This document shows positions 46,976 through 50,167 of a stretch of DNA of 64,000 bases, in pieces. Every line of letters starts with the position of its first letter. Within the stretch, counting starts at the first letter, position 1. The translations under genes and the position numbers were made by a program. Origin of the DNA: an uncultured bacterium (GTDB lineage: Bacteria; Hydrothermota; Tepidihabitantia; SM23-42); contig CAYQPW010000008.1 in the NCBI GenBank assembly GCA_964419565.1, forward strand, positions 28,284 to 92,283, read 5' to 3'. Under the pieces are notes generated by a model. The model was not told where the DNA came from. It ran no database searches and saw only the letters and a list, made by a program, of their open reading frames with translations.

Positions 46976-47003
46976 CTTGACTAAATAGATTTTCCATTTA
47001 TAA
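46976..47003 (+). promoter_or_regulatory. Promoter TTGACT-N16-TATAAT for riboswitch-btuB transcript
   Basis: TTGACT 46976-46981, TATAAT 46998-47003. Confidence 0.5.
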
Positions 47004-47007
47004 TACT

Positions 47008-47180
47008 CCAGGTTGGTGGATCCAAGGGAAGCACCGTGAGAATCGGTCGCGGTCGCCGCCACTGTGATTCTTTGTAAGACTCTGATCACTTAAAGTCACT
47101 GACGTCCACACACTGATCTTATTAGTGTCGGGGTTGGGAAGACTGATTAGAGCAAGATAAGTCAGGAGACCTATCCATCA
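47008..47180 (+). promoter_or_regulatory. Cobalamin (B12) riboswitch
   Basis: AAGGGAA (47024-30), GTGAGAATC, GCGGTCGCCGCCACTGTGA (cf. consensus GC.G.CCCGCCACTGT.A), GGGAAG, B12 box AAGTCAGGAGACCTATCC (47159-47176); upstream of a TonB-dependent receptor. Confidence 0.8.
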
Positions 47181-47218
47181 ACATCGCGAGAAAATCCTTC
47201 GGACGAAAGGGGGTAATA

Positions 47219-49174
47219 ATGATACCTTTGGCTTTTCTTGTCATACTCATTGCTCAACCGATCTATGAACTGGATGAGATCGTCGTTACTGCTACGCGTT
47301 ATCCTGCAGCTTTACAGGATGTCGCATTAGCAACGATAGTCATTGATCGGGAAGAACTCGACGAGTTCAATCCATCGAGTCTCACGGATGTTTTACAAAC
47401 ATACGCTGGTACTGATACCAAAGATTATGGTGTTCCAGGGACAGTGTCGAGCATATCTATCCGCGGCATTCCATCGAATGGCACACTGGTGCTCATTAAT
47501 GGTCATCCATTGAACTCGATAACCGTGGGGATGGCCGATCTGAGTGCGATAAATCTCAGTACAATCGAGCGTATTGAAATCGTTAAAGGACCGGTTTCAA
47601 GCTTGTACGGCGCGAATGGTCTTGGTGGTGCAGTAAATATCATAACAACAAAAGGTTATAAAAAGCCTGAATTCAAAATGTCCTTTTGTCCATCAACGAC
47701 CGATATAGATGTTCCCTTACAATCAAGAGAATTCTTTGCCAAACTGGGTTTACCAGCAGGTAGAATGATCTTTGACATTGCCGCAACATACGGTGCTTCT
47801 GATGGTTTCAGAGAAAACAGTGAATATACCGGCTATTATCTAACAGGTTCACTCGGCTATGAACTCGATAATACAAAGTTCATATCATCGCTGGTTTATA
47901 GTAATAGAGAATACGGATTGCCCGGACCAATGCTTGCCGATTCTACTTCCTCTTCTTTACTCGACCATGAGAAAGATGAATACCTTTTAGGAGATATAAA
48001 CATTTCATGGAACTTTTTAGAGAATTTTGCATGGGATAATACTTTATTTGCGGATCGTCGTTTTATCAAGTATCATACCGCGTATACGGATCTAAGTCAG
48101 GATACGCTGGAGAGTGATTATGATTACCTGACCTATGTTGTTGGCGTCAATTCGATCGCTCATTTTAAAAGCGGTAGGACTGATTTGACGATCGGTATTG
48201 ATACCCACTTTGACACCCTGGAAACGACTGAGACCCATGAGCTGTCGCGCGATACAATTTGGAATGCTTCTTCACATAATATCGGCGCCTGGCTTGAATT
48301 CAAATACCGAATAAAACATATTATTCTTGCGCCGAGCCTGAGATATGACCGGAATTCAAGGTTTGGGAATTTCCTTTCACCTGGGGTAGGTCTTATCAGC
48401 CCGCTTATTGATAATCTCTGGATTAAATTATCTGCGGGCAAGGCCTTTCGTGCACCGACATTCAATGACTTGTTCTGGCCTAATGCTGGCAATCCAGATC
48501 TTAAACCAGAACATGGCTGGGCATATGAATTACGCTTTGAAAGTTCTCCTTCACCGACGCTCTTCGCAGCATTATCTTTGTTTGCACGTTCTGTAAATGA
48601 CCGGATAGCCTGGCTTCCGGGCGATAATAATATGTGGCAGCCGCAGAATGTTAACCATATTTCAGTTCGTGGTGTGGATTTCGAAATGAACAAACAGATC
48701 AATGATTTCACAAACATTTATCTTGAAGGGTCTTATTTACAAGCAAAACAGAGAAACAATGAGATTACCTATGATTTTTATGATTGGGTAGCTGATACAA
48801 GCCTTACAATTATTGAAGAAGTAAAAAGAGATGCTGCTTTTACCCCAAAATATACGGCTTCAGCAAGACTCCATTTCAGTTTACCTTATGGATATGATTT
48901 TAATATCGAAGGTTTGTACGTCGCTGCGCAGGTCAACTATTATGTTAGTTATGATGAATACCCTGATATAACGATGGATACTAAAACACTCGATTCCTAT
49001 ATAATGCTCAATATAGGTTTTAGTAAAAAGGTCTTGAATTACCTGAAACTATCAGTCGGTGCGAAAAATCTACTAGACAAAGACCATGCGAAACAATTCG
49101 GTAATAGTATGACCGACTTGGATTATCCGATGCCTGGACGCCTGTTCTTTGCCCGGATCTCCATGGATTATTGA
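47219..49174 (+). CDS. btuB: TonB-dependent outer membrane receptor, BtuB-like (vitamin B12)
   Basis: TonB box DEIVVTATR, plug domain, 22-strand barrel, C-terminal aromatic; B12 riboswitch in leader. Confidence 0.85.
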   Translation: MIPLAFLVILIAQPIYELDEIVVTATRYPAALQDVALATIVIDREELDEFNPSSLTDVLQTYAGTDTKDYGVPGTVSSISIRGIPSNGTLVLINGHPLNSITVGMADLSAINLSTIERIEIVKGPVSSLYGANGLGGAVNIITTKGYKKPEFKMSFCPSTTDIDVPLQSREFFAKLGLPAGRMIFDIAATYGASDGFRENSEYTGYYLTGSLGYELDNTKFISSLVYSNREYGLPGPMLADSTSSSLLDHEKDEYLLGDINISWNFLENFAWDNTLFADRRFIKYHTAYTDLSQDTLESDYDYLTYVVGVNSIAHFKSGRTDLTIGIDTHFDTLETTETHELSRDTIWNASSHNIGAWLEFKYRIKHIILAPSLRYDRNSRFGNFLSPGVGLISPLIDNLWIKLSAGKAFRAPTFNDLFWPNAGNPDLKPEHGWAYELRFESSPSPTLFAALSLFARSVNDRIAWLPGDNNMWQPQNVNHISVRGVDFEMNKQINDFTNIYLEGSYLQAKQRNNEITYDFYDWVADTSLTIIEEVKRDAAFTPKYTASARLHFSLPYGYDFNIEGLYVAAQVNYYVSYDEYPDITMDTKTLDSYIMLNIGFSKKVLNYLKLSVGAKNLLDKDHAKQFGNSMTDLDYPMPGRLFFARISMDY

Positions 49175-49199
49175 CACCATAAATCATTTTGATTATACT
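49171..49199 (+). promoter_or_regulatory. Near-consensus sigma70 promoter TTGACA-N17-TATACT for rnpB
   Basis: TTGACA 49171-49176, TATACT 49194-49199, predicted TSS ~49206 = first nt of P1. Confidence 0.6.
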
Positions 49200-49252
49200 G
49201 ATATGTGGGGTGACTGGATAGCCGCTCCCACACTTTTAGGGAATAATGAATT

Positions 49253-49513
49253 ATGTTCTATGTCTATTTAATAAGAAGCAAAAAGGACAAGAGATTATAC
49301 ACTGGTTATGCTAATGACCTTAAACGAAGATTCAATGAACATAATTCAGGTTTCAACAAATGCACCAAGGGACGTGGACCGTTTGAGCTGATGTGTTATG
49401 AAGCATATGAAGCCAAACAAGATGCAGTACATCGGGAGAAAATGTTAAAGCTTAGAGCAAAAGCTCTCGGTCAATTAAAAAGACGTCTCCAATATAGTCT
49501 GGATATTCCCTAA
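49253..49513 (+). CDS. Small GIY-YIG nuclease family protein (COG2827/YhbQ-like), nested in rnpB P3 loop
   Basis: MFYVYLIRSKKDKRLYTGYANDLKRRFNEHNSG...GRGPFELMCYEAYEAKQDAVHREKMLK: GIY (VYL), YIG (YTG), Arg, Glu (NEH), Asn motifs; stop TAA inside the 3' strand of the closing stem. Confidence 0.8.
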   Translation: MFYVYLIRSKKDKRLYTGYANDLKRRFNEHNSGFNKCTKGRGPFELMCYEAYEAKQDAVHREKMLKLRAKALGQLKRRLQYSLDIP

Positions 49514-49614
49514 TAGTGTGGGAGAGGAAAGTCCGGGCTTCAAAGGGCAAGATGCTTCCTAACAGGAAGCCCCGCACCTTCTTTGTCATATGAGATTAGG
49601 GATGGATTATCGCT

Positions 49615-49848
49615 ATGCATTATGTTTACATTTTTAAGAAACGGAATAATGAAGAGATCTATATCGGTTGTACGAACAATCTCAAGAGAAGATCTCGAGA
49701 ACATAATGTCCACGGTATGAAGTGGGATTTGATTTATTATCAAGCATACAAGGCGCGAAAAGATGCTTACTTACGGGAAGAAAGGCTCAAGTATTATGGT
49801 CAGGCGCTTGGTCAACTTAAGAGGCGCATTAAGAATAGCCTTGTATGA
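49615..49848 (+). CDS. Small GIY-YIG nuclease family protein, paralog, nested in rnpB P9-like hairpin
   Basis: MHYVYIFKKRNNEEIYIGCTNNLKRRSREHN...; shares C-terminal LGQLKRR with ORF1; stop TGA is the first 3 nt of the 19-bp closing stem strand. Confidence 0.8.
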   Translation: MHYVYIFKKRNNEEIYIGCTNNLKRRSREHNVHGMKWDLIYYQAYKARKDAYLREERLKYYGQALGQLKRRIKNSLV

Positions 49849-50167
49849 CAAAGAAGGTGCGGGGGGAAAGTGCCACAGAAAATATACCTCCAGCTACATT
49901 AGTGGTTGGTAAGGGTGAAATGGCGAGGTAAGAGCTCACCGCTTTAGTGGCGACACTAAAGGCACGGTAAACCCCATCTGAAGCAAAACCAAATAAGCCC
50001 CGTATGAAATGGCCCGTTTCTACTGCTTTGCAGTGACGGGGTGGGTAGGTTGCACAGAGCATAGTAGTGATACTATGCCAAGACAAATGGCTATCCTTGA
50101 CAGAACCCGGCTTATAGGTCACCCCGCTTGTTGGTTTATTCGGTAATTCCCGAAGAAATACGGAGGT

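Follow-up and report, generated by a model that had tools for sequence, protein, structure and literature searches.

Selfish, non-intron insertions that bear open reading frames (ORFs) are already known from stable RNAs. Insertions of this kind that encode GIY-YIG proteins have been published from rRNA genes (16S and 23S) of the candidate phyla radiation (CPR), where they are considered sparse and not connected with homing (Tsurumaki et al. 2024, PMC11270868; Brown et al. 2015, as cited there for such non-intron rRNA insertions). Intervening sequences (IVSs) that RNase III removes without religation have their classical sites in helices 25 and 45 of 23S rRNA (PMC11270868), and removal by RNase III has been shown for the ORF-bearing helix-45 IVS of Coxiella burnetii (PMC4990558). 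There are also reports of diverged RNase P RNAs from CPR bacteria that carry large extensions of their helices, without mention of ORFs (PMC8172020). Here we analyze a 64,000-nt stretch of DNA from an uncultured bacterium (contig CAYQPW010000008.1, positions 28,284 to 92,283; hereafter the window), which contains a functional-looking RNase P RNA gene (rnpB) of a candidate division WOR-3 bacterium; two selfish cassettes, paralogs of each other, have probably colonized it. RNase P RNA belongs to the pair of universal ribozymes, and the gene for it is as a rule short and continuous.

The interval 49205-50128 on the forward strand is a bacterial type-A RNase P RNA gene (RF00010) in three collinear pieces, which are separated by two inserts of ~295 nt each at the tips of P3 and P9. 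Each insert, or cassette, consists of a small ORF enclosed by an inverted repeat, which we call the bracket. The gene and its parts are as follows.

49171..49199 (+): sigma-70-type rnpB promoter (TTGACA, 17-nt spacer, TATACT; 11 of 12 matches)
49205..50128 (+): whole rnpB transcription unit, ~921 nt, with RF00010 matches and collinear with ORF-free WOR-3 rnpB
49207..49227 (+): rnpB piece 1, the 5' strands of P1 (GGGGTGAC) and P2 (GGATAGCC) and the 3-nt 5' strand of the host P3 (CTC); pairs with 50086-50125
49228..49521 (+): cassette A, 294 nt, bracket CCACACTTTTAGGGAATA / TATTCCCTAATAGTGTGG around ORF1; replaces the TATGT loop of the ancestral 3-bp P3
49253..49513 (+): ORF1, predicted 86-aa stand-alone GIY-YIG nuclease domain, UPF0213/SLX1-like (PF01541, E 8.7e-18)
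49522..49569 (+): rnpB piece 2, the 3' strand of P3 (GAG), J3/4-P4 (AGGAAAGTCCGGGCT), P5, P7 and the P8 hairpin with its UAAC loop; RF00010 model positions ~45-90, posterior probability ~1, E 3.7e-8
49570..49864 (+): cassette B, 295 nt (boundaries +/-1-4 nt), bracket CCCCGCACCTTCTTTGTCA / TGACAAAGAAGGTGCGGGG around ORF2; stands in place of P9
49615..49848 (+): ORF2, predicted 77-aa GIY-YIG domain, a short variant without the 7-residue G..TKGRGP segment (PF01541, E 1.9e-10)
49865..50128 (+): rnpB piece 3, P10/11, P12, P13, P14, P15-P18 and the 3' strands of P5, P4, P2 and P1; RF00010 model positions ~100-367, posterior probability ~1

An earlier note on this DNA, made from its letters alone, had recognized the type-A elements in canonical order, and its placement of the P3 stem (49225-49241 / 49508-49524; 17 bp with one mismatch, which extends to 21 bp at 49225-45 / 49504-24), of the UAAC-looped P8-like hairpin (GCTTCC-TAACA-GGAAGC, 49554-70) and of the perfect 19-bp P9 stem (49570-88 / 49846-64) was borne out. 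Rfam scores the window gene at 183 bits (gathering score 100) through its 3' domain; the 5' third of the model is pushed onto ORF2, where posterior probabilities are low. We attribute the drop to 183 bits to the inability of cmscan to bridge two long insertions. When 49190-49592 was searched separately, the P4-P8 piece (49508-49573) was recognized alone (E 3.7e-8). Insert removal was assessed through this sub-window search, through natural alleles with one or no insert, and through an in-silico alignment of ten alleles in which the cassette interiors were collapsed. One-insert relatives, which have a TonB-dependent receptor gene upstream and recJ downstream, reach 245-257 bits along the whole model, in which the insert counts as one 291-nt insertion; ORF-free, more distant relatives score 215-270 bits. 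With its cassette interiors collapsed, the window RNA is 360 nt long, matching the ~360 nt that had been predicted for the RNA without inserts, and is collinear with the ORF-free genes. Only 1 of its 102 consensus pairs is broken, compared to 1-5 in ORF-free relatives (clade consensus), and compensatory changes occur across the clade at 27 pairs. All nine universal RNase P motifs are present, including the P4 strands GAGGAAAGUCCGG / ACAGAACCCGGCUUA, ACAGAAA, AAGGGUGAAA and GGUAAGAGC. Piece 1 is near-identical to positions 2398-2420 of a related locus (L010) that Rfam aligns to model positions 1-23.

The near-consensus promoter described in the earlier note also stands: its -35 and -10 hexamers are kept in the related loci L007 and L010, and we infer that transcription starts at about 49205-49207. 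The rnpB locus was assembled independently in at least six samples. The order TonB receptor - rnpB - recJ is kept in relatives, including a complete WOR-3 genome, and is lost between rnpB and recJ in L101 and L102. RecJ homologs at 56-61 per cent identity carry the name candidate division WOR-3, and one of them belongs to a complete genome with rnpB at the same locus. Judged by its motifs, pairs and promoter, the window rnpB is free of signs of decay.

Both ORFs are real genes for predicted GIY-YIG nucleases, in agreement with the description of them as small proteins of the UPF0213/COG2827 kind encoded on the same strand as rnpB. The two proteins are 43 per cent identical to each other. ORF1 has evolved under strong constraint relative to its orthologs (ratio of nonsynonymous to synonymous substitution rates, dN/dS, 0.08-0.11), and the residues Y3, Y5, Y16, G18, R26, H30 and E62 are invariant in 31 family sequences that include ORF1 and ORF2. 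Some 14 close relatives of ORF2 are 60-81 per cent identical to it, and homologs of the cassette ORFs at 50-66 per cent identity come from CPR bacteria. The nearest solved relatives are UPF0213 proteins (PDB 1ZG2, E 3e-13), followed by Slx1 and the catalytic domain of I-TevI. The AlphaFold2 model of ORF1 (mean predicted local distance difference test score 90.8) comprises the nuclease core and a C-terminal basic helix, superposes best on UPF0213 and Slx1, and shows no separate DNA-binding domain; the proteins are 77-86 aa long.

At the RNA level, both cassettes fold as closed domains (z = -6.5 for A and -6.2 for B). The start-codon region of ORF1 (49247..49258, +; TGAATTATGTTC) pairs with its E-H-N-S codons (49337-49348; GAACATAATTCA) in a perfect 12-bp helix that is present in the minimum free energy (MFE) and centroid folds and is conserved in L007 and L010. 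Runs of at least 8 bp between the start region and the E-H-N codons occur in 33 per cent of family members, compared to 1.1 per cent of control windows. An out-of-frame upstream ORF (ATGAATTATGTTC..., ~22 codons, 49246-49314) overlaps the start of ORF1 inside cassette A. No further copies of the ORFs or of the bracket motifs were found in the window.

The ORFs are nested in the P3 and P9 helices, as the earlier note had it. Its view of the long stems as expanded host helices did not hold up: they are, as related loci show, mostly the inverted repeats of the cassettes themselves, which are found elsewhere too. Cassette A (bracket CCACACTTTTAGGG...CCCTAATAGTGTGG with ORF1) occupies P3 in the window, L019 and L108, and P9 in L007, L009, L018 and L021 (89 per cent DNA and 87 per cent protein identity); the P9 of L010-12 holds a version of it at 78 per cent protein identity. 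In the alleles that have cassette A in P9, P3 is empty (CTC-TATGT-GAG). The same tiny P3 is shared with the ORF-free relatives L103 and L105, and we therefore regard it as ancestral. Cassette B (bracket CCCGCACC...GGTGCGGG with ORF2) occupies P9 in the window and in L017. The P9 of L103 has a bracket of the cassette B type without an ORF (92 nt in total with a 74-nt interior), and in that interior no GIY-YIG remnant was detected, so that its likeness to cassette B is limited to the bracket. In the P9 of L019, the cassette B bracket has collapsed to a 20-nt hairpin. The same bracket type recurs in L106 and L107, where it is accompanied by TATGAGATT and an ORF2-type gene and lies just 3' of a tRNA, before the tRNA's terminator; the bracket thus belongs to the cassette and not to the host. 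In L108, the P3 ORF has no stop codon and reads into P4-P8, and P12 (1643-1822) contains an ORF-less 180-nt CCCCCACACC...GGTGTGGGGG element (-62.9 kcal/mol), in the bracket interior of which no GIY-YIG remnant was detected.

Among close relatives, P3 and P9 are therefore each found filled, empty or with a remnant, which amounts to a presence/absence polymorphism of the homing type. Read together, the alleles trace cassettes that were gained, changed site, decayed and were lost, in the way that a selfish element would be, and indicate that the cassettes have been mobile on evolutionary time scales. Empty-site alleles, to which the earlier note had looked for evidence, exist for P3 or P9 singly, but none of the closest relatives was found to have both sites empty; genes free of ORFs occur only in more distant WOR-3 bacteria (RecJ 61-72 per cent identical). 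L019 had been taken from its Rfam coordinates for an uninterrupted rnpB, an assignment that we rejected because cassette A is in its P3 and only its P9 is short. A pattern scan of metagenome DNA returned four loci, one of which (L020) is a chance match.

To place the cassettes in a wider family, we surveyed 80 homologous genome loci (L021-L100), mostly from CPR bacteria. Forty of them were scanned with Rfam, and the other 40 were searched with aragorn, for RNase P motifs, and by BLAST against rRNA. The family as a whole comprises 5,751 clusters at 50 per cent identity (E <= 1e-10), with at least 581 loci in species-level genomes, nearly all of them of Patescibacteria/CPR, and a single contig can carry two copies (L047 and L064). 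A viral collection held only 9 distant relatives of the family and gave no evidence for a phage vector. In the survey, 24 of the 80 loci are in or against stable-RNA genes, and in all but 2 of these 24 the ORF is co-oriented with the host RNA gene. At 11 loci, a tRNA or transfer-messenger RNA (tmRNA) starts within 20 nt of the ORF end, and there the G-run of the 3' bracket arm coincides with the first nucleotides of the tRNA; 3 more loci have a tRNA start within 75 nt, and 2 abut a tRNA on the opposite strand. Five loci are in rnpB, 3 of them confirmed by Rfam (2 of which are CPR genes with the cassette in P3) and 2 recognized by motifs only. Judged by these genes, cassettes in rnpB are not unique to the window genome, and CPR rnpB genes carry the same kind of cassette. 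Three loci (L032, L065 and L099) lie inside rRNA genes, 2 in 23S and 1 in 16S. Of the two 23S elements, one stands in place of the helix 45 hairpin and the other in place of the helix 25 hairpin (mapped on rrlH of E. coli K-12), and the 16S element presumably replaces the hairpin of helix 6, if its flanks are read against the E. coli 16S sequence. The cassette-bearing CPR rnpB genes L071, L091, L092 and L042 score 110-120 bits or fall below the Rfam gathering threshold.

The near-perfect inverted repeat brackets the ORF tightly in 67 of 79 loci, usually over 17-30 bp, in the manner of the terminal inverted repeats of a transposon or a miniature inverted-repeat transposable element (MITE). No known transposase family was found in the cassettes, in which Pfam and NCBIfam recognize the GIY-YIG domain only. 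The outer end of the bracket is conserved (CCCCCACACC / GGTGTGGGGG, with the variants CCCCTCAC and CCCCCACCAC) and usually has the form CCCC[C/T/G]CAC(C)...(G)GTG[G/A/C]GGGG. The inner part varies among elements and yet stays complementary, with 4-6 pair types per column: in the inner zone, 8.8 of 11 positions pair with the element's own arm, compared to 4.8 when arms are swapped between loci. Across 60 distinct brackets, there are 1141 Watson-Crick pairs, 12 G.U pairs and 16 A.C pairs, whereas the same comparison in the rnpB core helices gives 124 G.U and 4 A.C pairs. Because G.U pairs are about as frequent as A.C pairs, unlike in the rnpB core, the bracket evolves as a strand-symmetric DNA palindrome and not as an ordinary RNA helix. 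This suggests a role at the DNA level, be it as a hairpin or cruciform substrate for an SLX1-like nuclease or through regeneration of the bracket during copying.

The tRNA-associated copies are flanked by 8-12-nt direct repeats of the tRNA 5' end. In nine loci (L022, L024, L026, L040, L049, L060, L080, L088 and L089, at ~1440-1790), the first 8-12 nt of the downstream tRNA (for example GGGCGCTTAG or GGGCGGTTAGC) are repeated directly 5' of the 5' arm of the cassette, in a form that resembles a target-site duplication beginning exactly at tRNA position +1. L025 has the same pattern, imperfectly, with a tmRNA. The flanks of L044, L047 and L053 carry 10-11-nt direct repeats (GGGGTTATCC, GGGGATAACCC) that consist of the end of one arm and the start of the other and flank the cassette on either side, as though the target itself had been a small bracket-like hairpin or a tandem element. 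At a locus of the Wildermuthbacteria type (L014-L016, ~2400-2960), a GIY-YIG ORF lies amid at least six short CCCCCAC[AT]ACT...AGTGTGGGGG hairpins, an array that suggests ORF-less bracket derivatives resembling MITEs or repetitive extragenic palindromic (REP) elements.

Among described systems, the closest are the CPR rRNA insertions and the RNase III-excised 23S IVSs, which make better analogies than the homing-endonuclease ORFs of group I introns that the earlier note had proposed. With the CPR insertions (PMC11270868), the cassettes share the protein family, the lack of intron-like RNA and the location at helix tips of a stable RNA; they differ in that the host gene is that of the RNase P ribozyme and the host a WOR-3 bacterium and not a member of the CPR. 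That paper mentions neither rnpB nor a tRNA/tmRNA association nor a conserved inverted-repeat bracket. Like the 23S IVSs (Coxiella helix 45, S23p; PMC4990558), the cassettes have the build of a selfish stem-loop that ends a peripheral helix of an essential stable RNA and holds an ORF in the loop closed by its long stem: the P3 and P9 inserts of the window are at peripheral helix tips and are closed by their own inverted repeats, and family members occupy the same helix 25 and helix 45 sites. The ORFs themselves differ, as the cassettes encode a GIY-YIG nuclease under purifying selection and not the four-helix S23p/23S_rRNA_IVP protein, whose Coxiella version is decaying and seems not to be produced (PMC4990558). 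If RNase III excision also occurs in the cassettes described here, the fragmented product would be a ribozyme.

The cassette proteins have the GIY-YIG catalytic fold and residues of I-TevI and the T4 Seg proteins, and they share with these a selfish lifestyle and a presence/absence and replacement polymorphism at a fixed site. However, at ~80 aa they have no counterpart of the long DNA-binding domain to which I-TevI owes its site specificity, and, unlike intron-encoded GIY-YIG homing endonucleases, their ORFs are not located in an intron and their closest solved relatives are UPF0213 and Slx1. A small nuclease gene between palindromic repeats, with a bracket that acts as a DNA palindrome, is also reminiscent of REP elements with their REP-associated tyrosine transposases (REP/RAYT) and of the hairpin-dependent IS200/IS605 transposons, as are the ORF-less hairpin derivatives (L103, the P12 element of L108 and the L014-16 arrays). 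In these systems, however, the enzyme is an HUH/Y1 transposase and not a GIY-YIG protein, and no dispersal of hairpins is seen in the 64-kb window; the likeness is mechanistic only, and to invoke it is speculation. What appears to be new is the RNase P ribozyme as the host RNA, a host outside the CPR, the conserved palindromic bracket, the association with tRNA and tmRNA, and the allelic series. Consistent with the earlier note, in which ORFs inside rnpB were thought to be undescribed, we found no literature report of GIY-YIG cassettes, or of any protein-coding gene, in rnpB, of the conserved bracket or of the tRNA association. The literature found for rnpB or RNase P RNA in combination with GIY-YIG or homing endonucleases consisted only of fungal mitochondrial genomes and unrelated papers, and a paper on tRNA introns of Patescibacteria mentions neither GIY-YIG nor RNase P.

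Because the bracket merely prolongs the tips of the peripheral helices P3 and P9, the ribozyme core is left undisturbed. We propose that the ORFs have no promoter of their own and that their expression rides on the strong stable-RNA promoter of rnpB, while translation may be kept low by the bracket and by the helix between the start codon and the E-H-N codons, which would together sequester the initiation region. By analogy with 23S IVSs at the same rRNA sites, RNase III would probably cleave the 19-21-bp brackets, since it could plausibly act on a perfect duplex of that length. The ORF RNA would be released, and the RNase P RNA would then consist of three pieces kept together through P1, P2, P4 and the stubs of the brackets. 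At the DNA level, the palindromic bracket could form a hairpin or cruciform substrate for a structure-specific nuclease, whose action might promote the copying of the cassette into other hairpin-forming sites; that the bracket evolves like DNA and not like an RNA helix makes such an additional role probable. On this basis we tentatively suggest, as a possibility that we consider doubtful, a previously unrecognized class of mobile elements: palindrome-bracketed mini-cassettes whose sole gene is a bare SLX1-like GIY-YIG nuclease and which would spread through the structure-specific cutting of DNA that forms hairpins within highly transcribed rRNA, tRNA, tmRNA and rnpB genes. The RNase P RNA of this WOR-3 lineage would then either be a ribozyme that naturally comes in three pieces or serve as a translated mRNA besides being a ribozyme.

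Since the family occupies the helix 25 and helix 45 sites of excised 23S IVSs, we lean slightly towards cleavage of the bracket by RNase III. Its main rival is retention of the cassettes as expansion segments, the chance of which we put barely below even. Taken in full, retention would make the transcript a continuous ~920-nt RNase P RNA with 300-nt expansion segments at P3 and P9 that serves as mRNA for two proteins as well, a ribozyme-mRNA chimera that we find conceivable, at a probability appreciably short of even. The cassettes fold as closed, self-contained domains (z ~ -6), the MFE fold of the full RNA retains P1 and both brackets, large helix extensions have been reported from CPR RNase P RNAs (PMC8172020), and the near-absence of G.U pairs gives no sign that the bracket has been selected as an RNA processing helix. 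It is harder to reconcile retention with family members at both 23S sites from which RNase III removes IVSs, with a perfect duplex that RNase III could plausibly cut, and with the apparent difficulty of translating an ORF locked in a stable ribonucleoprotein. That the inserts are self-splicing group I or group II introns with homing-endonuclease ORFs is scarcely credible. GIY-YIG ORFs are typical of group I introns, and 'group I intron endonuclease' is matched weakly in NCBIfam, at E 3e-4 and well short of the cutoff, but Rfam finds no intron family in the window or in any scanned locus, and the non-coding part of each insert is only ~35-60 nt, all of it bracket, which leaves no room for an intron ribozyme core. 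The GIY-YIG-encoding rRNA insertions of CPR bacteria are likewise said to resemble neither intron class (PMC11270868). A decaying rnpB pseudogene or an assembly artifact might explain the Rfam score of 183 bits and the misaligned 5' third; it is nevertheless highly improbable, given the six or more independent assemblies, the lack of excess broken pairs, the intact universal motifs and promoter, and a syntenic position equal to that of rnpB in relatives.

The proteins might instead be host factors of stable-RNA metabolism, for example processing or quality-control nucleases, that are encoded in the genes of their client RNAs for the sake of co-regulation. Such a function would agree with the dN/dS of ~0.1 and the invariant catalytic residues, with the striking link of the cassettes to RNase P RNA and to the substrates of RNase P (tRNA and tmRNA 5' leaders), and with the co-orientation of the ORFs and their host RNA genes. 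We consider it unlikely, as the cassettes are patchy in close relatives, switch between P3 and P9, leave ORF-less remnants, decay by read-through in L108 and occur in several copies per genome; moreover, related WOR-3 genomes have ORF-free rnpB genes, most surveyed loci are not beside a recognized RNA gene, and the bracket evolves as a DNA palindrome. Several observations nonetheless weigh against colonization by selfish cassettes. The ORFs are under strong purifying selection, as a protein of benefit to the host would be too, and the ~80-aa catalytic domain has, in its predicted structure, no evident sequence-specific DNA-binding module. No recognized RNA gene is adjacent at 56 of the 80 family loci. 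A target-site duplication is visible neither at P3 or P9 of rnpB nor in most intergenic copies, while repeats do flank the tRNA copies. Finally, the window covers 64 kb of the genome, and a second rnpB may lie elsewhere.

If selfish cassettes have indeed colonized this gene, a natural 921-nt rnpB with two ORFs is a direct test of the tolerance of the ribozyme: either large insertions in L3 and L9 are tolerated, or the ribozyme works as three non-covalently assembled pieces. The locus thus lets the modularity of a universal ribozyme be studied in a natural experiment. Cassettes would also explain why rnpB is under-scored or missed in covariance-model searches of some lineages (183 bits here, compared to 215-270 in other alleles), and the low scores of cassette-bearing CPR rnpB genes may contribute to reports of missing or diverged CPR RNase P RNA. 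The GIY-YIG ORFs of CPR rRNA genes, the classical IVS sites and the 'diverged' CPR RNase P RNAs would all fit one element family, whose members share a palindromic bracket that is conserved and prefer stable-RNA genes. For the large uncharacterized UPF0213 family, the cassettes offer a candidate function that is tractable.

A few further observations concern single loci and the surroundings of rnpB. Nearly all of L119 (NZ_AP027616.1), a 2.9-kb 'E. coli plasmid', is taken up by a 23S gene with a sequence unlike that of E. coli; this RefSeq replicon probably stems from contamination or misassembly. In the more distant WOR-3 relatives L101-L105, a 105-aa ORF with weak HTH_5/TrmB matches lies directly upstream of recJ (~100-180 nt); in L104 and L105 this ORF stands between rnpB and recJ, and neither the window nor its close relatives have it. 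On the other side of rnpB, the TonB-dependent receptor gene (47219-49174) is directly preceded by a cobalamin riboswitch (47001-47192, 66 bits), an ordinary BtuB-type arrangement that is kept in relatives.

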